A stretch of 25,942 nt of DNA, taken from IMG/VR virus record IMGVR_UViG_2563366768_000033, one strand, 5' to 3'. Position numbers and translations under genes: made by a program. The DNA comes from a virus (taxonomy: Duplodnaviria; Heunggongvirae; Uroviricota; Caudoviricetes). Below the pieces are notes generated by a model. That model was not told the origin of the DNA, did not search any database, and saw only the letters and a list, made by a program, of their open reading frames with translations. Position 1 is the first letter of the stretch. Every line of letters starts with the position of its first letter. This document shows, piece by piece, positions 1-14,842 of the stretch.

Positions 1-1254
1 ATGCTGGAACAAATGGGCATTGCCGCGAAGCAAGCCTCGTATAAATTAGCGCAACTCTCCAGCCGCGAAAAAAATCGCGTGCTGGAAAAAATCGCCGATG
101 AACTGGAAGCACAAAGCGAAATCATCCTCAACGCTAACGCCCAGGATGTTGCTGACGCGCGAGCCAATGGCCTTAGCGAAGCGATGCTTGACCGTCTGGC
201 ACTGACGCCCGCACGGCTGAAAGGCATTGCCGACGATGTACGTCAGGTGTGCAACCTCGCCGATCCAGTGGGGCAGGTAATCGATGGCGGCGTACTGGAC
301 AGCGGCCTGCGTCTTGAGCGTCGTCGCGTACCGCTGGGGGTTATTGGCGTGATTTATGAAGCGCGCCCGAACGTGACGGTTGATGTCGCTTCGCTGTGCC
401 TGAAAACCGGTAACGCGGTGATCCTGCGTGGTGGCAAAGAAACCTGTCGCACTAACGCGGCAACGGTGGTGGTGATTCAGGACGCCCTGAAATCCTGTGG
501 CTTACCGGCGGGTGCCGTGCAGGCGATTGATAATCCTGACCGTGCGCTGGTCAGTGAAATGCTGCGTATGGATAAATACATCGACATGCTGATCCCGCGC
601 GGCGGGGCTGGTTTGCATAAACTGTGCCGCGAGCAGTCGACGATCCCGGTGATCACAGGTGGTATAGGCGTATGCCATATTTATGTTGATGAAAGTGCAG
701 AGATTGCTGAAGCCCTGAAAGTAATCGTCAATGCGAAAACTCAGCGTCCGAGCACATGTAATACGGTAGAAACGTTGCTGGTGAATAAAAACATCGCCTA
801 TAGCTTCCTGCCCGCATTAAGCAAACAAATGGCGGAAAGCGGCGTGACGTTACACGCAGATGCATCTGCGCTGGCGCAGTTGCAGACAGGCCCTGCGAAG
901 GTGGTGGCGGTTAAAGCCGAAGAGTATGACGATGAGTTTCTGTCATTAGATTTGAACGTCAAAATCGTCAGCGATCTTGACGATGCCATCGCCCATATTC
1001 GTGAACACGGCACGCAACACTCCGATGCGATCCTGACCCGCGATATGCGCAACGCCCAGCGTTTTGTTAACGAAGTGGATTCGTCCGCTGTTTACGTTAA
1101 CGCCTCTACGCGTTTTACCGACGGCGGCCAGTTTGGACTGGGTGCGGAAGTGGCGGTAAGCACACAAAAACTCCACGCGCGTGGCCCAATGGGGCTGGAA
1201 GCACTGACCACTTACAAGTGGATCGGCATTGGTGATTACACCATTCGTGCGTAA
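1..1254 (+). CDS. proA: gamma-glutamyl phosphate reductase, complete (417 aa)
   Basis: ORF track product [16 protein letters not shown]...GDYTIRA matches full-length E. coli ProA as I recall it; ATG at 1, stop at 1252-1254. Confidence 0.95.
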
Positions 1255-1368
1255 ATAAAACCGGGTGATGCAAAAGTAGCCGTTTGATTCACAAGGCCAT
1301 TGACGCATCGCCCGGTTAGTTTTAACCTTGTCCACCGTGATTCACGTTCGTGAACATGTCCTTTCAGG

Positions 1369-1444
1369 GCCGATATAGCTCAGTTGGTAGAGCAGCGCAT
1401 TCGTAATGCGAAGGTCGTAGGTTCGACTCCTATTATCGGCACCA
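1369..1444 (+). tRNA. thrW: tRNA-Thr (anticodon CGT)
   Basis: 76-nt GCCGATATAGCTCAGTTGGTAGAGCAGCGCATTCGTAATGCGAAGGTCGTAGGTTCGACTCCTATTATCGGCACCA with encoded CCA; lies just 3' of proA as thrW does in E. coli. Confidence 0.95.
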
Positions 1445-1458
1445 TTTAAATCAATAAG

Positions 1459-2433
1459 TTACACATCATTAGTACCTTCCTTATTTTTTGACTGGGACAA
1501 ATTTGGGACCGATGGGTTCAGGATCGAGTCTATTTGCCGTGCGTGTTCGGTAAGGTGATTAGGTGCAAGGTGAGCATATCGACGAACCATTTCGATAGAC
1601 TCCCAGCCTCCCATTTCCTGTAACACTGACAACGGGACTCCGGCTTGAACCAGCCAACTTGCCCAGGTGTGTCTCAAGTCGTGAAATCTGAAATCATCAA
1701 TACCAGCCCGTCTCAGCGCCGCTTTCCAGGCTGTGTTTGCGTCATACCGCATCTTCCTTACTGTTGGCGCTTTCGTTCCGTCTGGTTTGGTACAGCTTTC
1801 CTTGTACACAAATACCCAACGGTGATGATTACCGATTTGTTTTTTCAATACGCGACATGCAGTATCATTCAGCGCAACGCCAATTGCGCGGTTTGATTTA
1901 CTCTCTTCCGGGTTTATCCATGCCACCCGGCGCTGCATATCTATTTGTTGCCATTCAAGGTTGATGATGTTCGAGCGTCTTAAGCCTGTTGCCAGTGCAA
2001 ATTCAACAACAGACTTTAATGGCTCCGGACATTCATCAATCAGCCTTTGTGCTTCATGGGGCTCCAGCCAGCGGAGCCGTTTATTCTTTGGTTGAGGCAC
2101 TTTAATAATTGGTGCCTTATCGAGCATTTTCCATTCACGCTCTGCGGCTCTTAGCAGGGCCTTTATAAATGAAAGATGCGTAGCCTTCGTTGCAACGGAC
2201 GCTGGTTTTGGCGTGTATTCTGGAACAGGTTTCCCTTTTTTTCTGCATGCTTCTGCCCTGAGTTTCCAGTTTTCCTCATGACGCCGGTTCGTCATTTTCT
2301 GCATTGCTGAATAAATTTTTGATTCAGTAATGTCTCTTAGTTGCATTCCTGCGAAATGTTGAAGCCAGAATCCGATCTGCTTTCCATTGAGCCTGTTTCT
2401 CTGCGCGACGTTCGCGGCGGCGTGTTTGTGCAT
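1459..2433 (-). CDS. phage tyrosine integrase, lambdoid IntD-like catalytic region; apparently 5'-truncated and fused to lambda N DNA
   Basis: 324-aa ORF with tyrosine-recombinase motifs ([17 protein letters not shown]...MVRRYAHL); adjacent to thrW and transcribed toward it. Its first 19 codons are lambda N sequence read in another frame, so the native arm-binding N-terminus (about 85 aa by comparison with recalled IntD) is missing. Confidence 0.8.
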
Positions 2434-2437
2434 CCAT
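2324..2437 (-). pseudogene. N: lambda N antiterminator, 5' fragment (first 20 codons) ending at a deletion junction
   Basis: Minus-strand frame reads [20 protein letters not shown], the arginine-rich N-terminus of lambda N, then diverges (DRILASTF...) and stops at 2324; located just downstream of nutL/PL as in lambda. Confidence 0.75.
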
Positions 2438-2594
2438 CTGGATTCTCCTGTTAGTTAGCTTTGGTTGTGTGTGGGAGTCGTAGTCCTGAACGAAAACACC
2501 CCGCAATGGCACATTGGCTGCTAATCCGGATTCGCACTTCCGGCCAATGCTTCGTTTCGTATCACACACACCAAAGCCTTCTGCTTTGAATGCT

Positions 2595-2625
2595 GCCCTT
2601 CTTCAGGGCTTAATTTTTAAGAGCA
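2595..2625 (-). promoter_or_regulatory. nutL (boxA 2617-2625, boxB hairpin 2595-2609)
   Basis: Minus strand reads TGCTCTTAAAAATTAAGCCCTGAAGAAGGGCAG, matching lambda nutL boxA-spacer-boxB (GCCCTGAAGAAGGGC stem-loop). Confidence 0.8.
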
Positions 2626-2654
2626 TCACCTTCATGGTGGTTAGTGCGTCCTGC

Positions 2655-2730
2655 TGATGTGCTTAGTATCACCGCTAGTGGTATTTGTGTCAACACCGCC
2701 AGAGGTAATTTATCACCGCAGATGGTTATC
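2655..2730 (-). promoter_or_regulatory. lambda PL promoter with operators OL1 (2667-2683), OL2 (2691-2707), OL3 (2711-2727)
   Basis: TATCACCGCTAGTGGTA, CAACACCGCCAGAGGTA and TATCACCGCAGATGGTT are 17-bp cI operator half-palindromes in lambda OL order; leftward -35 TTGACA (top-strand TGTCAA 2688-2693) and -10 GATACT (top-strand AGTATC 2665-2670). Confidence 0.85.
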
Positions 2731-2808
2731 TGTATGTTTTTTATATAGATTTATTTTTTGCAGGGTTGTGTGGCTTGGGAGGTGATCGAGAGATCAGAAT
2801 TGCGTTGT

Positions 2809-3198
2809 TTAGTGAGTTGCACCTATTAATTTTAAAATAAATACAATTGGTGTTTTTCGAGTTTTTCTTAACTCTTCATGCAGCTCCGTTCTCAGAATAT
2901 ATGATTTTTCGAGTTTGAAATTCTTGCGACCAGGCGTCTTATTGCCAGGCTCAGGAAGTGGAAGGCGTGTTTGAATGTCGAGTGGTGGACAGTCATAGAA
3001 GTAAATTCTATAAAGCTCAAGCGGTTCCCTACGTTCTTGTGATTGACGTTTTCCATTAAGATGGGAAAGAACCATTGACCATATTACTTTCATTATGCAT
3101 TGCGCAGTCAGTTCATGCTCGGCGAAGTGTTTACGATGCGTAGCATGAACACGCTGCATGAAAAAACCCGCATCAATTAAAATTGCTGCTTTCTTCAT
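2809..3198 (-). CDS. hypothetical protein (129 aa) in the slot lambda uses for rexAB between OL and cI; function unknown
   Basis: ORF MKKAAILIDAGFF... on the cI strand directly downstream of cI. Its N-terminus has a hydrophobic-IDxG start reminiscent of NYN/PIN-like nucleases but the motif set is incomplete. The last ~12 codons run into lambda-homologous DNA near 2845, so the 3' end may be junction-derived. Confidence 0.5.
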   Translation of the reverse strand: MKKAAILIDAGFFMQRVHATHRKHFAEHELTAQCIMKVIWSMVLSHLNGKRQSQERREPLELYRIYFYDCPPLDIQTRLPLPEPGNKTPGRKNFKLEKSYILRTELHEELRKTRKTPIVFILKLIGATH

Positions 3199-3325
3199 AA
3201 GAGTCCCAAAAAAATAGCCCAGAGCCGTTATGCAGATATTAACAATTGTCTGCGAACGGGGCTGGGCTTGGTTTAATTAATCTATGCCAAGTTGACTGTG
3301 CCGTCAACATAAAACTTACTTCCTA

Positions 3326-4042
<717 letters not shown>

Positions 4043-4049
4043 TTAAATC

Positions 4050-4116
4050 TATCACCGCAAGGGATAAATATCTAACACCGCGCGTGTTGACTACTTTACC
4101 TCTGGCGGTGATAATG
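4050..4116. promoter_or_regulatory. lambda OR region: OR3 (4050-4066), OR2 (4073-4089), OR1 (4097-4113), PRM and PR (-35 TTGACT 4087-4092, -10 GATAAT 4110-4115)
   Basis: TATCACCGCAAGGGATA / TAACACCGCGCGTGTTG / TACCTCTGGCGGTGATA between divergent cI and cro, followed by AAGGAGG and the cro ATG at 4140. Confidence 0.9.
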
Positions 4117-4130
4117 GTTGCATGTACTAA

Positions 4131-4340
<210 letters not shown>

Positions 4341-4347
4341 ATAACCC

Positions 4348-4379
4348 CGCTCTTACACATTCCAGCCCTGAAAAAGGGC
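4348..4379 (+). promoter_or_regulatory. nutR (boxA CGCTCTTA 4348-4355, boxB GCCCTGAAAAAGGGC 4365-4379)
   Basis: Direct match to the lambda nutR boxA/boxB arrangement between cro and cII. Confidence 0.8.
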
Positions 4380-4458
4380 ATCCAATTAAACCACACCTAT
4401 GGTGTATGCATTTATTTGCATACATTCAATCAATTGTTATCTAAGGAAATACTTACAT

Positions 4459-4752
4459 ATGGTTCGTGCAAACAAACGCAACGAGGCTCTACGAATCGAG
4501 AGTGCGTTGCTTAACAAAATCGCAATGCTTGGAACTGAGAAGACAGCGGAAGCTGTGGGAGTTGATAAGTCGCAGATCAGCAGGTGGAAGAGAGACTGGA
4601 TTCCAAAGTTCTCAATGCTGCTTGCTGTTCTTGAATGGGGGGTCGTTGACGACGACATGGCTCGATTGGCGCGACAAGTTGCTGCGATTCTCACCAATAA
4701 AAAACGCCCGGCGGCAACCGAGCGTTCTGAACAAATCCAGATGGAGTTCTGA
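4459..4752 (+). CDS. cII: CII transcriptional activator (97 aa)
   Basis: ATG at 4459 gives MVRANKRNEALRIESALLNKIAMLGTEKTAEAVGVDKSQISRWKRDWIPKFSMLLAVLEWGVVDDDMARLARQVAAILTNKKRPAATERSEQIQMEF, i.e. lambda CII; the ORF track's upstream extension (4399) is not used. Confidence 0.95.
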   Translation: MVRANKRNEALRIESALLNKIAMLGTEKTAEAVGVDKSQISRWKRDWIPKFSMLLAVLEWGVVDDDMARLARQVAAILTNKKRPAATERSEQIQMEF

Positions 4753-4774
4753 GGTCATTACTGGATCTATCAAC
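4697..4774 (-). ncRNA. oop: oop antisense RNA (about 77 nt) overlapping the cII 3' end
   Basis: Minus strand from 4774 reads GTTGATAGATCCAGTAATGACCTCAGAACTCCATCTGGATTTGTTCAGAACGCTCGGTTGCCGCCGGGCGTTTTTTATT, matching recalled lambda oop with its GC hairpin and U-tract terminator. Confidence 0.75.
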
Positions 4775-4784
4775 AGGAGTCATT

Positions 4785-5707
4785 ATGACAAATACAGCAA
4801 AAATACTCAACTTCGGCAGAGGTAACTTTGCCGGACAGGAGCGTAATGTGGCAGATCTCGATGATGGTTACGCCAGACTATCAAATATGCTGCTTGAGGC
4901 TTATTCGGGCGCAGATCTGACCAAGCGACAGTTTAAAGTGCTGCTTGCCATTCTGCGTAAAACCTATGGGTGGAATAAACCAATGGACAGAATCACCGAT
5001 TCTCAACTTAGCGAGATTACAAAGTTACCTGTCAAACGGTGCAATGAAGCCAAGTTAGAACTCGTCAGAATGAATATTATCAAGCAGCAAGGCGGCATGT
5101 TTGGACCAAATAAAAACATCTCAGAATGGTGTATCCCTCAAAACGAGGGAAAATCCCCTAAAACGAGGGATAAAACATCCCTCAAATTGGGGGATTGCTA
5201 TCCCTCAAATTGGGGGATTGCTATCCCTCAAAACAGGGGGACACAAAAGACACTATTACAAAAGAAAAAAGAAAAGATTATTCGTCCGAGAATTCTGGCG
5301 AATCCTCTGACCAGCCAGAAAACGATCTTTCTGTGGTTAAACCGGATGCTGCAATTCAGAGCGGCAGCAAGTGGGGAACAGCAGAAGACCTGACCGCCGC
5401 AGAGTGGATGTTTGACATGGTGAAGACCATCGCGCCATCAGCCAGAAAACCGAATTTTGCTGGGTGGGCTAACGATATCCGCCTGATGCGTGAACGTGAC
5501 GGACGTAACCACCGCGATATGTGTGTGCTTTTCCGCTGGGCCTGCCAGGACAACTTCTGGTCCGGTAACGTGCTGAGTCCGGCCAAACTCCGCGACAAGT
5601 GGACCCAGCTCGAAATCAACCGTAACAAGCAACAGGCAGGCGTGACAGCCAGCAAACCAAAACTCGACCTGACAAACACTGACTGGATTTACGGGGTGGA
5701 TTTATGA
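4785..5707 (+). pseudogene. O: lambda O replication initiator, frameshifted inside the ori iteron region
   Basis: N-terminal part (MTNTAKILNFGRGNFAG...ISEWCIPQNEGKSPKTRDKTSLKLGDCYPS) is in frame 0 and stops at 5393 after reading through unrelated sequence. The C-terminal O sequence (SKQGDTKDTITKEKRKDYSSENSG...DWIYGVDL) continues in frame +2 to the stop at 5705-5707. The shift coincides with a 23-bp tandem duplication at 5177-5222. Confidence 0.85.
5133..5240. repeat. ori-lambda iterons: five 18-bp O-binding repeats (5133, 5153, 5177, 5200, 5223) where lambda has four; third unit duplicated
   Basis: ATCCCTCAAAACGAGGGA, ATCCCCTAAAACGAGGGA, ATCCCTCAAATTGGGGGA (twice, each with TTGCT spacer = exact 23-bp tandem repeat 5177-5199/5200-5222), ATCCCTCAAAACAGGGGGA, followed by the AT-rich ori segment. 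Confidence 0.85.
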
Positions 5708-6015
5708 AAAACATCGCCGCACAGATGGTTAACTTTGACCGTGAGCAGATGCGTCGGATCGCCAACATCGATAACCAGGACATGACGATATCGGTCTGGG
5801 TCTTTCCTGATACTGATATTTCAGATGTATCGCGTGAGTTAATTGCGGCAATTAAACAGGGGTATCTAACAGTAAAAGCCGCCGGGGTATGGGCGGGGGG
5901 CATTGAAACACCTTCGGTGGAAACTCCATCGGAAGGCTCTAAATTTTTTGGTTTTGATATGGATAACGAATTCATCAGTGGTTTTGATGTAGGGGCATGG
6001 GGAGTATTACTCTGA
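5704..6015 (+). pseudogene. P: lambda P replication protein, first 21 codons, fused at a deletion junction to the 3' end of an unrelated (tail-module) reading frame
   Basis: ATG overlaps the O stop (ATGA) as in lambda; product begins MKNIAAQMVNFDREQMRRIAN (lambda P N-terminus) then switches to IDNQDMTISVWVFPDTDIS... and stops at 6013-6015. Confidence 0.7.
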
Positions 6016-6725
6016 TGGCGAAAAATGACTTTAAAGCGTTTGCAACTGATCGAAATGCCAATGTTATGTCGCAGGAGGAATGGGAAGCGTTGCCTGCGCT
6101 TATATCCGGATTTACAGCAGGGAAAGCATCCAGTGCGCAAGTCAATAAGGTTATTCGGCAGGCCAGCTTTATTGCTGCAGCTCTGGCCCAGTTTGTAAGT
6201 GATAAAACGCAACGGGATGTGCTTGATAATGGTGATCTGCCCGGTTTTGTTGAATTGCTGGGATCGGGGTTTGCTGTTGAATACCTGAGCCGCAAGAATC
6301 CGTTTGGCGATATCAAATCGGACGGCACGGTGAAAACGGCTCTTCAAAACCTTGGTTTGGGAGAAGCGGCAAAACGGGATGTGGGGACAGGGGAAAATCA
6401 GATACCGGACATGGCCTCTTTTGCCAGTGGTAATGGATGGATGAAATTACCCAACGGGAAAATCCTGCAATATGGTCGTGGTGCGGTTACGCCGACATTA
6501 TCGACGCAAACAATGAGAATTACATTCAGCATCCCTTTCCCCAAAAAAGCGGACTGCGCCATGCTTACTCATTCTGGTGATGGCGGTGCGCCTTTAGGCG
6601 CTGGGCGAGGGTTCGTGATGACTGCAGAAGGCCCAACGTTAACCGGCTTTAATTCTGCTTACAGAACGTCATCAACCAGCGACACGGTATCGATGAATTA
6701 CAGTTGGTGGGCTGTTGGTGAGTAA
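6015..6725 (+). CDS. side tail fibre protein, variable C-terminal segment (StfP-like); alternative start 5997
   Basis: Product [61 protein letters not shown]... is characteristic of e14/Mu/P1-type tail fibre variable regions; followed by a tail-fibre assembly gene and an inverted second set. Confidence 0.7.
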
Positions 6726-6736
6726 TTTTATTCAGG

Positions 6737-7189
6737 GTGATTTATATGGACGAATATGTTTATAGCGCAAGGCATAATGCTTTTTTCCCTGTGGATATGA
6801 TTGATAAATATAAATCAGAGGGATGGGATTTATCAGACGCTAAGGAAGTAAATCAAAATATTATCAGTGAGTTTATGGCTGAACCGCCACAAGGAAAAAT
6901 CCGTATTGCCGGAGATGATGGGCTGCCTGCGTGGGCAGATATTCCTCCACCCACGCATGAAGAGCTTATTGAAATTACTGAATCAGAAAGACAGCTACTA
7001 ATTAACCAGGCCAACGAATACATGAACAGTAAGCAATGGCCCGGTAAAGCGGCTATTGGTCGTCTGAAAGGTGACGAACTGACGCAATATAATTTGTGGC
7101 TGGATTATCTGGACGCACTGGAGCTGGTCGATACTTCCGGTGCGCCAGATATTGAATGGCCTACGCCTCCGGCAGTTCAGGCCAGATGA
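6737..7189 (+). CDS. tail fibre assembly protein (Tfa)
   Basis: 150-aa ORF directly after stf; C-terminus ...LTQYNLWLDYLDALELVDTSGAPDIEWPTPP is the conserved Tfa tail, mirrored by the convergent paralogue at 7161-7754. Confidence 0.8.
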   Translation: MIYMDEYVYSARHNAFFPVDMIDKYKSEGWDLSDAKEVNQNIISEFMAEPPQGKIRIAGDDGLPAWADIPPPTHEELIEITESERQLLINQANEYMNSKQWPGKAAIGRLKGDELTQYNLWLDYLDALELVDTSGAPDIEWPTPPAVQAR

Positions 7190-7754
7190 CATCCGGCGCG
7201 GTGCTGGTATCTGTTGCCGTCACCGCGTCAATGTAATCCAGCACGGCGTTAAGTCGGGTTGTTTCTGCCTGAGTCAGTTTCCGTCCGGCCTGTAACTTCA
7301 GCTGAATCAGACTAATGGAAGCCATTGCTGCATCAATCAGTGATTGGCGCTGTGCTTCTGCCGCGTCTACTGCGGCACTGTGTTGTGCCTCAGTGTCTGT
7401 CACCCATTTCTCACCATCCCATTTATCGTATGGCGTTAACGGTGAAATCGTGACATAACCGTCTTTGATGGCACCGATATAATCCACTGTAACAGCTGCG
7501 CCATTTTCGATTGAGTAAACAGTCTCATTGCGATGGTCTTCTTCATGGCTCCATCCCTTACCTGTAAATACTGCCACTCTTCCCGGAATGTTTTCGCCAG
7601 GGTCAATACCAGTGGAACAGGCGGGCATACTTACGCCAGTATTAATATATTCATCAGACCAGCCCGTATACTCAGATGTTTCAGCATCATAATAAAAACA
7701 ACGCATATCGCCCGGCACTGTAGCCAGCCCATTTTCATCAAAAACAGGTTTCAT
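7161..7754 (-). CDS. tail fibre assembly protein, alternative copy (TfaE-like) in inverted orientation
   Basis: 197-aa ORF MKPVFDENGLATVPGDMRCFYYDAETSEYTGW... ending ...LNAVLDYIDAVTATDTSTAPDVIWPELPEA; convergent and overlapping with the plus-strand tfa, as in G/P invertible segments. Confidence 0.8.
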   Translation of the reverse strand: MKPVFDENGLATVPGDMRCFYYDAETSEYTGWSDEYINTGVSMPACSTGIDPGENIPGRVAVFTGKGWSHEEDHRNETVYSIENGAAVTVDYIGAIKDGYVTISPLTPYDKWDGEKWVTDTEAQHSAAVDAAEAQRQSLIDAAMASISLIQLKLQAGRKLTQAETTRLNAVLDYIDAVTATDTSTAPDVIWPELPEA

Positions 7755-8251
7755 TATTTAGCCCTCACCAGAAAGTTAAATGCAATATTTCGCGGTCTGA
7801 CTGCAACAAAATTCACACCATCACCCACAGAGTTACTGGTGAAATTAAATCGTGAAAATCCTGGCTGATTTCCGGCGATGCCATCATGAAAGTTAATTGC
7901 GTGTCCCGCACCTTCGCCTATATTCCCGGCAAACTGAGAAAAGTTTGTAGCTGCCTGCCAGCTTAATAATTCGCGACCACCGTCTGCACCTCGCCCGTCA
8001 TCCCAGATACGAATGAAATCACCGCGGGCTTCAGGTAATACCAGCGAAGGAAACACTTTCGCCAGCACAGGATAATCAGTGGCAGAGAATTTCGCGCCGT
8101 TGAACTTCAAAAACACCATACAGGACCAGCTGTCGATTACAGTATTTGGCATTGCAGCGGACGGCCAGAAGAACGGAACGCCAATAGCTGGAGCACCTTC
8201 TCCCAAACCAACGTTTATGAAAATGCAGAAATAACGAGCAAATGGCATCAT
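7754..8251 (-). CDS. alternative tail fibre C-terminal segment (StfE-like), currently in the off orientation
   Basis: 165-aa minus-strand ORF abutting the pin upstream region with no constant tail-fibre N-terminal part attached; position equivalent to stfE of e14. Confidence 0.65.
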   Translation of the reverse strand: MMPFARYFCIFINVGLGEGAPAIGVPFFWPSAAMPNTVIDSWSCMVFLKFNGAKFSATDYPVLAKVFPSLVLPEARGDFIRIWDDGRGADGGRELLSWQAATNFSQFAGNIGEGAGHAINFHDGIAGNQPGFSRFNFTSNSVGDGVNFVAVRPRNIAFNFLVRAK

Positions 8252-8277
8252 TCCTGCTTTTGTCAGGGAGATCTACC

Positions 8278-8832
8278 ATGCTTATTGGCTATGTACGTGT
8301 GTCAACAAATGACCAGAACACAGATCTACAACGTAATGCGCTGAACTGTGCAGGATGCGAGCTGATTTTTGAAGACAAGATAAGCGGTACAAAGTCCGAA
8401 AGGCCGGGACTGAAAAAACTGCTCAGGACATTATCGGCAGGTGACACTCTGGTTGTCTGGAAACTGGATCGGCTGGGGCGCAGTATGCGGCATCTGGTCA
8501 TTCTGGTTGAGGAGTTGCGCGAACGTGGCGTTAATTTTCGCAGCCTGACGGATGCTATTGATACCAGTACCCCAATGGGGCGCTTTTTCTTTCATGTGAT
8601 GGGGGCCCTGGCTGAAATGGAACGAGAACTGATTGTTGAACGAACAAAAGCTGGACTGGAAGCTGCTCGCGCACAGGGACGAATTGGTGGACGTCGTCCC
8701 AAACTTACACCAGAACAATGGGCGCAGGCCGGACGATTAATTGCAGCAGGAATTCCTCGCCAGAAGGTAGCGATCATCTATGATGTTGGTGTATCGACAC
8801 TGTATAAGAAGTTTCCGGCCGGAGATAAATGA
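8278..8832 (+). CDS. pin: serine DNA invertase (Pin/Gin/Hin family), 184 aa
   Basis: From ATG at 8278: MLIGYVRVSTNDQNTDLQRNALNCAGCELIFEDKISGTKSERPGLKKLLRTLSAGDTLVVWKLDRLGRSMRHLV... with catalytic Ser in VRVSTNDQ and C-terminal HTH; placed directly after the inverted stf/tfa pair. Confidence 0.9.
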   Translation: MLIGYVRVSTNDQNTDLQRNALNCAGCELIFEDKISGTKSERPGLKKLLRTLSAGDTLVVWKLDRLGRSMRHLVILVEELRERGVNFRSLTDAIDTSTPMGRFFFHVMGALAEMERELIVERTKAGLEAARAQGRIGGRRPKLTPEQWAQAGRLIAAGIPRQKVAIIYDVGVSTLYKKFPAGDK

Positions 8833-8889
8833 AACCGTAGCACGTCGTATGCAAGATCGTGCTGCGGTTTATGCTTACCACTTGAAGAT

Positions 8890-9759
<870 letters not shown>

Positions 9760-9842
9760 CTAACCCTTTGAATTTACATAGCGCAAAAAGATACCTTTCC
9801 TCATAATGTGAGCTAATTTTATGTTTCGTTTGATGATCGGGT

Positions 9843-9904
9843 CGGTCTCGAAAACCGGAGTAGGGGCAACTCTACCGGGGGTTCAAATCCCCCTCTCTCC
9901 GCCA
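9843..9904 (+). other. 3' fragment (about 62 nt) of tRNA-Ser serU; attachment-site remnant
   Basis: CGGTCTCGAAAACCGGAGTAGGGGCAACTCTACCGGGGGTTCAAATCCCCCTCTCTCCGCCA matches the serU tRNA from the anticodon arm to the CCA end; the 5' third of the tRNA is absent. Confidence 0.8.
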
Positions 9905-10486
9905 CTTTATCAATGACTTATCTCCCGACTTCCCGTCTTGCTTTTCCTAAACAGAACAATCGTAGAATATTCTTGAAGGGTTAGATCGTCACTGTTTTCT
10001 GTTCGATACTGTGACATTCAGCACTTGATTCGCTATGGATCTGACAGGAAGGTTTTGAGCGAAAATCTGCAGTTATTCAGTCGTTTTCTTATCGGTCACC
10101 ATTATTCTTTTAGACATTGATCCTACAAAGCTGCCGCAAAGTTGGTGGTGGGAACTGAAGTTGCGTAGAGAAGGGGTCAATACCCGGAGGCAAACATGGG
10201 CTGGCAAAAGTGTAGCGGTATTAGGCGCAGCTATTTAGCCTAGTTATGTTTTATGAAAACTTGATATCATATAAGTGTCTTACTTATTGGCTGTAAATAA
10301 GTTTTTCCTAAGGAATTGTTTCTTGAGTATCATTTGTAACTGTAACGGAATTTATAATCCTTTGCTTTATTGTTACGGTATTTTTTATCACACCCTATTT
10401 TTAGTGGTTTTTTATACTGAAGTTTGGCAAAGTGAACTTTATATACATATACTTCATCCTGGTTTCAGTTAAATTGGGGGGATGAT

Positions 10487-11230
10487 ATGGCAACTACATG
10501 TTCAGTTATATTGATTTTGGAGTCCTTTGATGTTTATTTCGGAAAAGAGAGTGTGTTTCTGGAGAGAGGTTCATCTGTACTTGTCGACTCTAGCTCTAGA
10601 GATTTTTTCCTGACATATCCTGAAAGAGTGATAGTGGCGGATTTTGGCGCTGAGTTTATTAGTCGCTATTTGAAAGCTAATAACTTAAGGGATATTTCTG
10701 ATTGTAGGGAATATCCATCTTATTTAAAAATAAACTTTGCTGACTTCAGTTTAATTAAAGGATTAATTAGTTGGGCTAATCACTGTGCTGAATACATAGA
10801 AATTTTTGATGAGTCTATTGCTTTTACATGTCTCTCTGCATTTTCTTCTGAAAAACAATTTGGAGTATTTCTGTTTGGATGTTTGAAAAGCACAGGGGCT
10901 AAAGTTAAAACGATTATTCATACGGATTTATCTGCACCATGGCGTCTTAAGGATATATCATCAAGATTATATCTCAGCGAAAGTTTACTAAAGAGGAAAT
11001 TGAAAGAAGAGGGGGTATCATTCAGTAAGATCATACTTGATGAGAGGATGCAAATGGCTGAATATTTACTCAGCACTCGTTGTTATCCTATTAGTAAAGT
11101 AGCTAAGGTCTGTGGTTATGCCAGTGTCTCATACTTTACTTATGTATTTAGACGTTATTTTGGTGTTTCTCCAAGTCAATACTCTCAGAGGAGTTCAGAA
11201 AGTAAAATTCTTACTCACCAGGGAATCTGA
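10487..11230 (+). CDS. AraC/XylS-family transcriptional regulator (AppY/Rns-like)
   Basis: 247-aa product with C-terminal dual HTH (WRLKDISSRLYLSESLLKRKLKEEGVSFSKIILDERMQMAEYLL...KVAKVCGYASVSYFTYVFRRYFGVSPSQY); AT-rich gene and upstream region; GGGGG Shine-Dalgarno before the ATG. Confidence 0.75.
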   Translation: MATTCSVILILESFDVYFGKESVFLERGSSVLVDSSSRDFFLTYPERVIVADFGAEFISRYLKANNLRDISDCREYPSYLKINFADFSLIKGLISWANHCAEYIEIFDESIAFTCLSAFSSEKQFGVFLFGCLKSTGAKVKTIIHTDLSAPWRLKDISSRLYLSESLLKRKLKEEGVSFSKIILDERMQMAEYLLSTRCYPISKVAKVCGYASVSYFTYVFRRYFGVSPSQYSQRSSESKILTHQGI

Positions 11231-11271
11231 TCATTGTTCTTGCCCCCTTATTTCCAGACAGGGGGGGTATC

Positions 11272-11720
11272 TTAAGTTAACGTTACCCGCTGACGTCGAT
11301 ATTCTCGCGGAGAGCGATAACCCAACGCACTGTGCGGATGGTTTTCATTGTAATGTTCGATCGCCACTGCAAGATTATGCAATGCCGTTCTTACATTCGG
11401 TTTCGGCATGAACGCGATGTAGTCTTCCTTCATCGTTTTCACGAACCTTTCTGCAATTCCATTACTCTGAGGACTGCTGATTGCCGTTGTGCAGGGCTCC
11501 AGATTCAACTCTCTGGCGAACTGCCGTGTTTCATGCGCTCTATACGCTGAACCGTTATCTGTCAGCCACTGGATGGACTGTTCCGGTACTTTATCGCCAA
11601 AGCGTTTTTCTATCGCTCCTAACATGACATCCTGCACTGTCGCTTTATCGTAACCTCCCGTGCTTGCGGCCCAGTCTATGGCTTCACGATCGCAACAGTC
11701 CAGGGCGATTCATCTGGGCC
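11272..11720 (-). mobile_element. IS2-family (IS3 group) transposase orfB, 3' fragment only
   Basis: Minus-strand translation ...[72 protein letters not shown]...[14 protein letters not shown] parallels the C-terminal integrase-core region of IS2 InsD as recalled; no orfA, no 5' half and no terminal inverted repeats seen. Confidence 0.7.
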
Positions 11721-11984
11721 AATCCTTGCTCATAACAGGCATTCACTTCAGTCATGGCAGAAAGGTATGCATGCTGGAGAAGTCGTGAAAGAAAAGAAGA
11801 CTGCTGCGCCGTTTGTCGTCACGTTTATCTTCATTGGCTATGCAAGTCGTAATACAAGGTGGGACAAAACTGAGACACATAAGGCCTCGCAATGGCTTGC
11901 AAGGCTTTACATGTTTTGATGTGGTGGGACGTGTGAGCGCAGTGTTGATGGGGTAATGCTTTGAATTAGAAGCGGATTCTTATA

Positions 11985-12030
11985 ATTCGTAATGCGAAGG
12001 TCGTAGGTTCGACTCCTATTATCGGCACCA
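11985..12030 (+). other. direct repeat of the thrW 3' end (46 nt); junction between the two stacked elements
   Basis: ATTCGTAATGCGAAGGTCGTAGGTTCGACTCCTATTATCGGCACCA is identical to thrW 1399-1444; followed 160 bp later by a P4-type integrase gene. Confidence 0.85.
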
Positions 12031-12192
12031 TCTCAACTTCCTCAAACGTCCGTATTAGTCCATAAAATCTCTGATTTATAACATTTTTTATTCTTTTAAG
12101 TCCATAGTAGTCCGTAACCATCCAGTAGAATCCGGTACTGAATGTGTATAGGATTGTGTATATGTTCCTGTTCGGTCTGGATTCCTATACAC

Positions 12193-13374
12193 ATGCCTTT
12201 AAACGATATGCAGATTCGCCGCGCTAAGCCTGAAGCTAAAGCCTATACATTTGGAGATGGGCTAGGGTTGTCATTACTTATAGAACCTAATGGAAGCAAG
12301 AGTTGGCGGTTCCGCTATCGCTATGCCGGCAAACCCAAAATGATCTCGCTTGGTGTTTACCCAACGATCACCCTTGCCGATGCTCGTTCCCGTCGTGATG
12401 AAGCTCGAAAACTTGTGGCAGAAGGAAAGAACCCTAGTGAGGTTCGAAAAGAGCAAAAGCTAGCTATGCAAACAGAGTCAGAGAACGCCTTCGAAAAGAT
12501 AGCCAGAGAGTGGCATCAACTTAAATCTGCTAAATGGTCGGCGGGATATGCATCAGACATCATGGAAGCGTTTAAGAACGACATTTTTCCTTATGTCGGA
12601 ACAAGGCCTGTGGGAGAGATTAAACCGCTAGAGCTGCTGAACGTTCTGCGTAAAATTGAGAAACGTGGTGCGTTGGAGAAAATGCGCAAAGTGCGGCAGC
12701 GTTGCTCCGAAGTGTTTCGCTACGCAATTGCAACGGGTAGGGCGGAGTACAATCCTGCGGCTGATCTCTCCAGCGCTCTCGAAGTACACCAATCCAATCA
12801 TTTCCCATTCCTAAAAGCTGATGAGATACCTGATTTTCTACGTGCCTTAGAGGGTTACTCCGGGAGTAAGCTTGTCCAGATAGCCACGAAATTACTGATG
12901 ATTACGGGTGTGAGAACCATCGAATTACGCGCGGCATTATGGCAAGAATTTGATCTGGATAACGCTATTTGGGAAATTCCTGCTGAAAGGATGAAAATGC
13001 GTAGGCCACATCTTGTGCCCTTATCATCTCAAGCGGTAGATTTACTCAATGAACTCAAGATCATGACAGGGAACTATCGTTATGTTTTTCCAGGGCGGAA
13101 CGATCCGAATAGGCCAATGAGCGAAGCGAGTATAAATCAAGCCATTAAGCGTATTGGGTATGGAGGAAAAGTCACTGGACATGGTTTTCGTCATACCCTT
13201 TCTACAATCCTGCATGAGCAAGGTTTTGAGAGTGCTTGGATTGAAATCCAGTTGGCTCATGTAGATAAAAATTCTATTAGGGGGACTTATAACCATGCTC
13301 AATATTTTAGTGGAAGGAAGTCTATGATGGACTGGTACAGTAATTTGATATTTGAAAGACTAAAAAGGAGTTAA
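12193..13374 (+). CDS. P4-family tyrosine integrase
   Basis: From ATG at 12193: MPLNDMQIRRAKPEAKAYTFGDGLGLSLLIEPNGSKSWRFRYRYAGKPKMISLGVYP... (P4/CP4-57-type N-terminus) with C-terminal catalytic region HGFRHTLSTILHEQG...RGTYNH; the ORF track's upstream extension is not used. Confidence 0.9.
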   Translation: MPLNDMQIRRAKPEAKAYTFGDGLGLSLLIEPNGSKSWRFRYRYAGKPKMISLGVYPTITLADARSRRDEARKLVAEGKNPSEVRKEQKLAMQTESENAFEKIAREWHQLKSAKWSAGYASDIMEAFKNDIFPYVGTRPVGEIKPLELLNVLRKIEKRGALEKMRKVRQRCSEVFRYAIATGRAEYNPAADLSSALEVHQSNHFPFLKADEIPDFLRALEGYSGSKLVQIATKLLMITGVRTIELRAALWQEFDLDNAIWEIPAERMKMRRPHLVPLSSQAVDLLNELKIMTGNYRYVFPGRNDPNRPMSEASINQAIKRIGYGGKVTGHGFRHTLSTILHEQGFESAWIEIQLAHVDKNSIRGTYNHAQYFSGRKSMMDWYSNLIFERLKRS

Positions 13375-13377
13375 TTT

Positions 13378-13794
13378 GTGTCTCAACCACTTTCGGAAAT
13401 ATTGACATGGGATGATGAACAATGGGAGGTATTTGTCCATGATTGGCTTATTGTCTGTAAATCAGATGATTACCCGTGGAGCGAACGTTTGGGAGGAGCT
13501 GGAGATAAAGGTAGAGACGTTGTTGGATATAAATCGGATCCTAACGTAGAAGGTTATTCTTGGGATAATTATCAATGCAAACTGTACAAAAAAAGTTTAG
13601 GGTTCTCTGATGTTGTAGTTGAGTTTGGAAAACTTATCTATTTTACTCTGAATGGTGATTATCCCATCCCTCAGAAGTACTTTTTTGTGGCACCCTATGA
13701 TTTATCTACTACATTTTCTAATTTATTGAAAAATAAAAACGAGCTTAAAAAAGCAGTCCTTGATTCATGGGATTCAGCAATTTCAAAAAAATAA
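13378..13794 (+). CDS. cargo gene 1, N-terminal part: Mrr-like PD-(D/E)xK nuclease domain (frame broken at A7 tract 13785-13791)
   Basis: GTG start 7 nt after AAGGAG (13365-13370) and 4 nt after the int stop; product contains GGAGDKGRDVVGY...(17 aa)...YQCKLY, the GxGDxGxD / QxK pattern of Mrr-type nuclease cores. Very AT-rich. Confidence 0.6.
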   Translation: MSQPLSEILTWDDEQWEVFVHDWLIVCKSDDYPWSERLGGAGDKGRDVVGYKSDPNVEGYSWDNYQCKLYKKSLGFSDVVVEFGKLIYFTLNGDYPIPQKYFFVAPYDLSTTFSNLLKNKNELKKAVLDSWDSAISKK

Positions 13795-14384
13795 CTAAAA
13801 AGATTGATATTCCATTAGATGATGAAATAAAAAAATATATTGAGGATTTTGATTTTAGTATTTTTTACTCTCTACCCTTATCATTGATTTTAAATGATAT
13901 TGCAAATACACACCTTTATTTTAAGTACTTTAACGAGCTGTATGTCGTGAGAATCCCTCCAAATGAAATTCCAACATACAATTCAAAAAAAGAGTCTGTA
14001 TATGTTAATGCACTGCTTCAAGCCTATTCAGAGCATGGAAATAAAACTTATAGTTCTTTCTTAGAGCTTGATGATCCATACAGACGACACTTTAATAATA
14101 GTAGAAATGATTTTTATTTTGCATCTTCGCTTGAGGTTTTTGTCCGCGAAGTATTTAAAGATGATGTATTCAAAGCATTGAAATGTTACATTTCATCTTC
14201 AATTGAACCCGTCTTTTATGAAGACCATAATTATGCATTTATTAGGTGTAATGCAGTCTTGAAGCAGGCTGTTCTGACACCAATTGCACATTCAGTACTA
14301 TCAAAAATATGTGAAGCAAATGATAAAAAAGGAATATGCCATCATTTGGTTAATGATGGTGAAGTAATTTGGACGGTGAGATAA
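13767..14384 (+). CDS. cargo gene 1, C-terminal part (unknown domain); probably the continuation of 13378-13794
   Basis: This frame is open from 13764 and overlaps the previous ORF's end across an A7 run; one extra A would join them into a single ORF of about 336 codons. Stop TAA at 14382-14384 overlaps the next ATG. Confidence 0.55.
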   Translation: MGFSNFKKITKKIDIPLDDEIKKYIEDFDFSIFYSLPLSLILNDIANTHLYFKYFNELYVVRIPPNEIPTYNSKKESVYVNALLQAYSEHGNKTYSSFLELDDPYRRHFNNSRNDFYFASSLEVFVREVFKDDVFKALKCYISSSIEPVFYEDHNYAFIRCNAVLKQAVLTPIAHSVLSKICEANDKKGICHHLVNDGEVIWTVR

Positions 14385-14842
14385 TGGTTAGAATTTATAA
14401 TTCAAGTTTAGAAGTGGCATGTCGAATGGCGAAAGTGCTCGTCGCTATTTATCCTTCTTCATTAAGCCTTGAACGGCTTATTTGTTTTGATTTTATTTTA
14501 GTAAATCTTAAGGATTTTTTACCTGAAGAGATTAGTCTTCATCCTCCAATACCCCGTAGAGATGCTCAGTTAGCCCTAAAACGAGAGATTGTTTTAGAAT
14601 CATTGGCTTTGTTGCAAGGCTATGAACTAGCCTCAAAAATTTATACACATCGTGGTTTTGTATATAAAGCTTCTGAAAAAACATATGCATTTACAAATTC
14701 TCTACATAATGAATATGTTGCGCAGATGGAGCATAATATAAATTTGGTGGTTAAGTTATATAGTGATATTCCTGATGAGCAGTTGCAATCAATTATAAAA
14801 AATAAAATTGGCAAATATGATATGGAATTTAATTATGAATGA
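14384..14842 (+). CDS. cargo gene 2: small protein (152 aa), predicted mostly helical; candidate middle component
   Basis: ATG at 14384 overlaps the upstream stop (TAATG); product MVRIYNSSLEVACRMAKVLVAIYPSSLSLERLICFDF...; its stop overlaps the next gene's ATG (ATGAATGA). Confidence 0.6.
   Translation: MVRIYNSSLEVACRMAKVLVAIYPSSLSLERLICFDFILVNLKDFLPEEISLHPPIPRRDAQLALKREIVLESLALLQGYELASKIYTHRGFVYKASEKTYAFTNSLHNEYVAQMEHNINLVVKLYSDIPDEQLQSIIKNKIGKYDMEFNYE

Follow-up and report, generated by a model that had tools for sequence, protein, structure and literature searches.

Replication origins of the ori-lambda type, as described for the phages lambda and 21, are characterized by an array of 18-19 bp inverted-repeat iterons within the initiator gene O and an adjacent AT-rich region, together with a full-length O protein in cis and the helicase loader P. 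In the classical ori- iteron deletions of lambda (r93, r96, r99, and ti12), O was kept in frame. Six iterons are present in the origins of several Stx phages (P27, 933W, and Sakai Sp15), in which a 39-bp in-frame insertion (13 aa) places iterons 1' and 1'' upstream of the first iteron, ITN1; this insertion was needed for replication of P27-derived plasmids (PMC7466680). The same paper credits Moore et al. (1981) with the finding that three iterons suffice for lambda growth. A further related system is the laboratory "trapped lambda fragment": a non-excisable fragment with a working pR-O-P-ori kills the induced cell (replicative killing), and the survivors carry mutations blocking initiation (PMC3349717). 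The DNA analyzed here (25,942 nt, IMG/VR virus record IMGVR_UViG_2563366768_000033; hereafter referred to as the window) is the proA-thrW region of Escherichia coli O157:H7, with positions 4700-5800 being 100% identical to O157:H7 chromosomes, and contains the cryptic lambda-like prophage Sp1 (CP-933H in EDL933). In the ori-lambda of this prophage, within its O gene, a 23-bp "iteron 3 plus spacer" unit has very probably been duplicated in tandem by slipped-strand mispairing (or unequal exchange).

The four iterons and the 42-bp AT-rich region of Sp1 match those of lambda, and its O protein after in silico repair is that of lambda; unlike lambda and phage 21, Sp1 has an extra iteron 3 plus spacer, a broken O frame, and no P. 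Of the characters of this origin type, the iteron array within the initiator gene and the adjacent AT-rich region are present in Sp1 of the window, whereas full-length O in cis and the helicase loader are lacking. As in the six-iteron Stx-phage origins, iteron number varies and the extra sites lie inside O, but Sp1 lacks the 39-bp block, and its 23-bp insertion is out of frame and places an ITN3 copy between ITN3 and ITN4. The lambda ori- deletions are likewise rearrangements between repeated iterons, whereas in Sp1 a duplication destroyed the frame. The RK- survivors of the Hayes laboratory (PMC3349717) resemble Sp1 in that a non-excisable, repressor-controlled cI-cro-cII-O-P fragment in the chromosome carries lesions, which prevent initiation from ori-lambda in the survivors and affect both O and P in Sp1. 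Sp1 is, in contrast, a natural remnant, the lesions of which may have been selected in this manner. Ordinary tandem-duplication frameshift pseudogenes share with Sp1 perfect tandem copies at a short direct repeat, a unit length not divisible by three, an ORF that is otherwise intact, and precise reversion. Sp1 does not differ from them in kind, except that its unit also serves as a protein-binding site in a replication origin.

In the Sakai annotation, the element is described as "prophage Sp1, lambda-like phage", inserted at thrW beside proA. The O defect itself is already known: O of Sp1/CP-933H is annotated as a frameshifted pseudogene in RefSeq, pseudogene annotations in Sakai include O (ECs_0277), P (ECs_0279), and the integrase, and the PGAP labels in EDL933 are "frameshifted" for O and "incomplete" for P. 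Sp1 was reported to be defective in replication and integration and to lack excision; its repressor and antirepressor were conserved, and all other functions were scored as absent (Asadulghani et al., 2009; PMC2669165). In the literature on O157, Sp1, and CP-933H, no description of the iteron duplication or of the cause of the O defect was found. The base-level mechanism and the recurrent reversion reported here are modest additions, by which a base-pair cause is given for the annotation of ECs_0277 and its EDL933 counterpart. Sp1 O is an ordinary pseudogene that arose by a neat mutational mechanism, and the cryptic prophage in which it lies is well known.

The duplicated unit and its effect on gene O

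The iterons were placed by mapping onto the lambda record J02459, in which four iterons are annotated (39034-39118). All four have counterparts in Sp1, and the 23-bp unit ATCCCTCAAATTGGGGGATTGCT, which contains the third, was found twice in perfect tandem (Table 1). Direct string comparison showed that 5177-5199 equals 5200-5222, and Tandem Repeats Finder reported a repeat at 5177-5232 with a period of 23, 2.4 copies, 100% matches, and a score of 112. The period runs on for 10 bases at the 3' side (ATCCCTCAAA, 5223-5232) with no leftward extension, so any register between 5177 and 5187 describes the duplication equally well. When aligned with lambda, phage 21, O55:H7 CB9615, and O157:H7 SS52, the iteron region had one extra 23-bp block and was otherwise the same. 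The start-to-start spacing of the iterons was 20, 24, 23, and 23 bp, which means that the added site keeps the native ITN3-ITN4 spacing; the duplication thus adds a fifth O-binding site at native spacing, and the five iterons are in phase. An earlier note on this DNA had placed O-binding iterons within the O coding sequence, described the third unit as a perfect tandem, counted five iterons instead of four, and proposed a comparison with related prophages. The mapping to J02459, the two repeat analyses, and the alignment with four-iteron relatives, which differed by exactly one block, bore out each of these points.

As 23 cannot be divided by three, the O frame is broken and the product is cut to 202 aa (hereafter O'). 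From the ATG at 4785, O' keeps the whole Pfam Phage_rep_O domain (residues 22-115), which we take to be the origin-binding domain of O, and loses the C-terminal part. The native C-terminal frame remained open from 5174 to 5707, including the normal stop at 5705-5707, and had no start codon of its own besides a mechanically listed TTG at 5195. After in silico deletion of one unit, the O protein was identical to those of both lambda and phage 21 (299/299 aa), and the repaired gene was identical to phage 21 O (900/900 nt); its 15 nt differences from lambda O were all synonymous. This identity with phage 21 O indicates that the duplication is the sole lesion in O and must be recent. The lesion would be one slippage event in a phage 21/lambda-type gene that has otherwise stayed unharmed. 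A sequence search of PDB with the full-length O gave no matches. The earlier note had also read a frameshift ending the original frame at 5393, an authentic C-terminus continuing in the +2 frame, and the loss of any full-length O, and it had suggested an alignment with lambda O; the stop at 5391-5393, the open +2 frame, the 202-aa product with native residues 1-141 only, and the identity of the repaired protein all agreed with that reading.

The anatomy of the repeat points to its origin. ITN3 and ITN4 share a 10-bp start (ATCCCTCAAA), 23 bp apart, and the duplicated interval is exactly that distance. Such an interval, followed by a 10-bp partial copy, argues for slipped-strand mispairing or unequal sister exchange at this microhomology. 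Misalignment of the two ATCCCTCAAA repeats during replication would have duplicated the interval between them, and the 33-bp direct homology of the resulting tandem repeat would allow precise loss of one copy, by which O would be restored. All that is expected of a pseudogene formed by slippage was found, namely perfect copies at a short repeat, an open reading frame (ORF) otherwise intact, and natural revertants (in assemblies).

A full-length O with an altered linker could in principle still be produced if ribosomes slipped by -1 within the A-rich stretch 5258-5276 and so re-entered the native frame. The native C-terminal frame, open at 5174-5707, is indeed -1 relative to O', and the O' frame is open until 5391, so that any -1 slip in the overlap would restore the C-terminus; the interval holds CAA AAG AAA AAA GAA AAG. 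However, no canonical X XXY YYZ heptamer lies in register in the O' frame, and the A-rich sequence is the AT-rich region of the origin, which is found in all lambda-type O genes. Further, the arrangement was present in none of 50,697 phage records and is not conserved even within Sp1, and, P being absent, a restored O would be left without a partner to recruit. We regard such a slip as extremely improbable.

Distribution of one- and two-copy alleles

Copy state was searched with a 46-base query consisting of the two copies only; an 81-base query was ambiguous, with single-copy loci being stitched from two overlapping pieces. Of the 5,426 complete E. coli genomes, 193 gave full matches (46/46), Sakai and EDL933 among them. 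All were O157:H7 among the matches listed, and every other match of this query in the complete E. coli genomes was the 33-base single-copy pattern. The Sp1-specific junction of O, the P remnant (P'), and tail-fibre sequence was identified in 205 genomes (80% query coverage), with P deleted in all 205. In public assemblies, the exact 202-aa O' product was found in 476 index blocks, and the long contigs that were read with this product all proved to be Sp1 at proA-thrW. The 46-base tandem was also detected in 7 IMG/VR contigs. In contrast to these, no phage record carried the duplication (0/50,697), and a scan of GTDB species representatives gave no match to the junction. The one "plasmid" record with the duplication (NZ_CP044147.1) was dismissed, being a wrongly labelled piece of the chromosome of O157 strain AR-0428 (a frsA-proA-Sp1 contig). 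The alleles seen had one or two copies, the three-copy query being unable to tell three-copy from two-copy loci.

These counts bear on the possibility, raised as a test in the earlier note, that the true sequence is single-copy and the tandem was made by mis-assembly or sequencing error. Short tandem repeats are sometimes miscounted. However, a perfect 46-base tandem in 26 kb has no chance origin, and the identical tandem in 193 independent assemblies of complete genomes from many laboratories, Sakai and EDL933 included, excludes an assembly artefact; the 7 IMG/VR contigs and 476 index blocks point the same way. The probability left for an artefact is next to nil.

Two IMG/VR contigs carried the duplication in other surroundings. 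In contig L008 (IMGVR_UViG_2541047164_000016, 11985-13062), which has flanks like those of the Stx1 prophage Sp15 and intact P, ren, and nin, an Sp1-like tract of ~260-480 bp with the 23-bp duplication replaces the six-iteron region. In contig L014, the duplication was found with a bet/gam left arm, a different context. Neither arrangement was reproduced in any complete genome. Both were rejected as independent recurrence or spread, since each is a short draft contig with its end in the repeated O gene; chimeric assembly at that gene is the most likely explanation. Alternatively, in L008 the Sp1 allele may have converted an Stx1 prophage, which would have disabled O of the Stx1 phage.

In 13 O157:H7 genomes, Sp1 had one unit, four iterons, and an intact 299-aa O, corresponding to ~6% of the Sp1 records (13/206). 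With the 23 bp set aside, 12 of these genomes were 100% identical to the duplication allele across 1,151 bp, and 7386WT was 99.7% identical. The latter had three extra single-nucleotide polymorphisms (5322, 5323, and 5367), a cluster suggestive of gene conversion. Variants in the surrounding 16-21 kb were tabulated for all 13 single-copy genomes and 9 duplication carriers, and the single-copy alleles were found on at least 5-6 linked-marker backgrounds common to duplication carriers. ECP19-798 had 2705G in common with the present window only. Z1812 had 545T in common with VXJP01 and VIFP01, together with an IS629/IS1203 insertion at the same site and in the same orientation, SS52 shared 2076T, 4093G, 15131T, and the insertion sequence (IS) with SS17, 7386WT shared a second IS at 12714 with CP034792, and Rafaela_II shared 2076T and 4093A with 93_161312. 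Two sub-groups of single-copy genomes were formed by 272, 3-5-1, and 08-3918 and by JEONG-1266 and PNUSAE151637, and UTME-4 and Al Ain had a Sakai/EDL933-like background; the thirteenth single-copy genome was 26_141088.

The presence of both copy states on both sides of several markers indicates at least 5-6 changes of the repeat. Since precise loss is far likelier than repeated identical gain, and given the ratio of 193:13, the duplication is probably ancestral for the sampled O157:H7; it would already have been present in the common ancestor of the sampled Sp1 copies. One copy appears to have been lost repeatedly thereafter, at least 5-6 times, in most cases by slippage and in one by gene conversion. 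The four-/five-iteron state is homoplastic and unstable within O157:H7 and is therefore unsuitable as a phylogenetic character, and the Sp1 repeat offers a handy natural case of a short tandem duplication that reverts.

Several points weigh against this account. The single-copy state was read from assemblies, and some of the 13 genomes could hold collapsed repeats; JEONG-1266 and Rafaela_II have several frameshift-annotated neighbour genes, suggesting a noisy consensus. The ancestral state was deduced from local linked markers (16-21 kb), not from a whole-genome phylogeny. In addition, the 193 duplication genomes do not equal the 192 given by the junction count (205 - 13), one carrier having <80% coverage of the Sp1 junction query. 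This extra carrier may have a rearranged Sp1 or another context. Finally, O' is probably made, given the induction of Sp1 early genes by mitomycin C that is described below.

The occurrence of one- and two-copy states on several backgrounds would also be expected of a selected on/off switch, that is, a contingency locus toggling O expression. We consider this very unlikely: just one and two copies were seen, with no sign of a multi-unit tract, and no phenotype would be expected where P is deleted, as in all 205 Sp1 genomes. The 13 single-copy alleles among 206 records and the at least 5-6 events are, to an order of magnitude, what neutral slippage loss would give.

Other variation was noted at linked positions. 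At 2705, G was present in the window, and A was found in all other Sp1 loci examined except that of ECP19-798. The common 2705G suggests that the source strain is close to ECP19-798, which has the single-copy allele with intact O. IS629/IS1203 elements were polymorphic among strains, with two site/orientation types at ~2851 in the Sp1 left arm and further insertions at ~11541 near the Sp1/Sp2 border and at ~12714 within the integrase of Sp2, the neighbouring P4-like prophage. None of these insertions was present in the window, and they served as linked markers.

Replication defects of Sp1 and possible roles of the O lesion

Sp1 contains no P, no functional integrase, and no remaining late genes, and consequently would not replicate even if O were whole. 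Among these several defects the O lesion is redundant, and it is not what keeps Sp1 from replicating. After mitomycin C treatment of Sakai, no DNA amplification, circularisation, replication, or packaging of Sp1 took place, and its early genes were clearly induced (PMC2669165). A restored intact O is useless because P is gone. The state of O today appears neutral, and we infer that the duplication is without present function.

The duplication may once have been favoured, by analogy with the trapped lambda fragment, through escape from replicative killing. Sp1 matches the architecture of such a fragment, having an integrase pseudogene, an intact cI gene, and early genes induced by the SOS response. 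Either the O frameshift or the P deletion, in whichever order, would have been favoured against replicative killing. Sp1 is a natural counterpart of the laboratory system, and the knockout of both its O and its P fits selection against replicative killing.

A present role was also considered, in which O' made upon SOS induction, and/or the oop-plus-iteron DNA of the five-iteron origin, competes for lambda-type origins. O' retains native residues 1-141 with the whole Phage_rep_O domain, mitomycin C clearly induces the early genes of Sp1 in Sakai, and the co-resident Sp15 and Stx phages use the same iteron sequences. According to the literature, plasmid-borne oop plus ITN3-4 silences replication of rep-lambda phages, and oop, pO, and the iterons of Sp1 are 100% lambda-like. 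That silencing was seen with multicopy plasmids, however, and not with a single chromosomal copy; the 61-residue tail of O' is out-of-frame junk, and the allele has been lost repeatedly with no visible constraint. Moreover, Sakai shows strong replication of Sp5 and Sp15 in spite of O' (PMC2669165). Competition of this kind is unlikely, and a small probability is likewise given to its predicted effect, the damping of replication of co-resident Stx prophages or superinfecting rep-lambda phages. A role of O' and the five-iteron, oop-positive DNA as decoy or dominant-negative inhibitor, exerted at the identical iterons of co-resident Stx1/Stx2 prophages or of incoming rep-lambda phages, is improbable. 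If they had this role, the one-/two-copy polymorphism would modulate Stx-phage replication and toxin yield in O157:H7. It would take interference of the extra iteron or of the truncated O' with Stx-phage replication to make the duplication relevant to pathogen biology. We retain the reading of a slippage-derived pseudogene without present function.

Other features of the Sp1 region

The coordinates of Sp1 and of its features are listed in Table 1.

Table 1. Features of the Sp1 region (positions in the window).
Feature	Position	Strand	Remarks
thrW (tRNA-Thr), Sp1 integration site	1369-1441	+	Rfam tRNA match; thrW annotation in Sakai
Cryptic lambda-like prophage Sp1 (CP-933H in EDL933)	1428-12013		Sakai feature 300042-310627, offset 298614
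Integrase pseudogene intD	1459-2433	-	Sakai and EDL933: pseudogene / missing N-terminus
cI repressor	3326-4039	-	Lambda immunity type, intact, 237 aa; 4 substitutions relative to lambda (T3A, K70N, R129K, D138G)
Operators OR3-OR2-OR1 with pRM/pR	4050-4113		Mapped from J02459; OR1 and OR3 as in lambda, OR2 with 1 mismatch
cro	4140-4340	+	201/201 nt identical to lambda
cII	4459-4752	+	2 nt differences from lambda
oop antisense RNA region (approximate)	4698-4774	-	77/77 identical to lambda stretch
O', frameshifted ORF, 202 aa	4785-5393	+	Native residues 1-141, 61 out-of-frame residues, stop at 5391-5393
Iteron ITN1	5133-5150		18/18 identical to lambda 39034-39051
Iteron ITN2	5153-5170		18/18 identical to lambda 39054-39071
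Duplicated unit, copy 1	5177-5199		ITN3 at 5177-5194 (18/18 lambda) and spacer TTGCT
Duplicated unit, copy 2	5200-5222		Exact ITN3 copy at 5200-5217 and spacer; extra, fifth iteron
Iteron ITN4	5223-5240		18/18 lambda; first 10 bases ATCCCTCAAA (5223-5232) repeat ITN3 start
Coding sequence for O residues 142-299 (C-terminal part binding P)	5231-5707	+	Intact, +2 frame
AT-rich unwinding region of ori-lambda	5241-5282		42/42 identical to lambda 39119-39160; directly adjoins ITN4
P' remnant	5704-5767	+	First 21 codons of lambda P; lambda homology stops at ~5767 (64 bp)
3' fragment of DUF2612-type gene from unrelated phage	5768-6015	+	Fused to P' at deletion/recombination joint

Sp1 was collinear with lambda from cI to the start of P, and its immunity region (3326-4774) was essentially that of lambda; nutR and the oop/pO region were identical to lambda at every base. 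Given this lambda-type immunity region, O157:H7 strains bearing Sp1 may be immune to phages with lambda immunity. An Rfam scan of the window gave no match to the oop family, its matches being thrW and, in Sp2, C4 and isrK. The oop region was therefore placed by identity to a lambda stretch that is presumably oop; an "oopRNA" feature underlies the match in the phage 21 record AJ237660.

Downstream of O, P' was fused in frame to the 3' end of the DUF2612-type (baseplate-like) gene, forming a chimeric ORF of 103 aa (5704-6015). The DUF2612 assignment comes from part 592-1124 of the query, which matched DUF2612 genes elsewhere, and the Pfam DUF2612 hit was weak. The PGAP name for the second half of this ORF, "phage replication protein, missing N-terminus", looks mis-annotated. 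This fragment was followed by tail-fibre genes and then by the pin invertase. A segment of ~1.83 kb (6343-8221) containing tail-fibre C-termini and tail-fibre-assembly genes was inverted relative to Sakai and EDL933, with 1781/1781 bases matching as the reverse complement, and it adjoins the pin invertase gene (8278-8832). Since both orientations of the segment occur among O157:H7 genomes, the pin switch of the dead Sp1 still flips.

A prophage of O55:H7 CB9615 (locus L007, 1-12033) was considered as an ancestor of Sp1 and rejected, being a different full-length lambdoid prophage near the Sp1 position. Its cII protein was equal to that of Sp1, its repressor was different, and its P was intact; its O gene had four iterons and 21 nt differences. 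With such differences in repressor and O and an intact P in CB9615, Sp1 is not simply its decayed copy.

Of the two Rfam matches in Sp2, that at 19908-19985 corresponded to isrK, an Hfq-binding RNA, and that at 20054-20141 to C4, an antisense RNA. Genes annotated as "ABC-three component system" were also present in Sp2 (~13767-14842).

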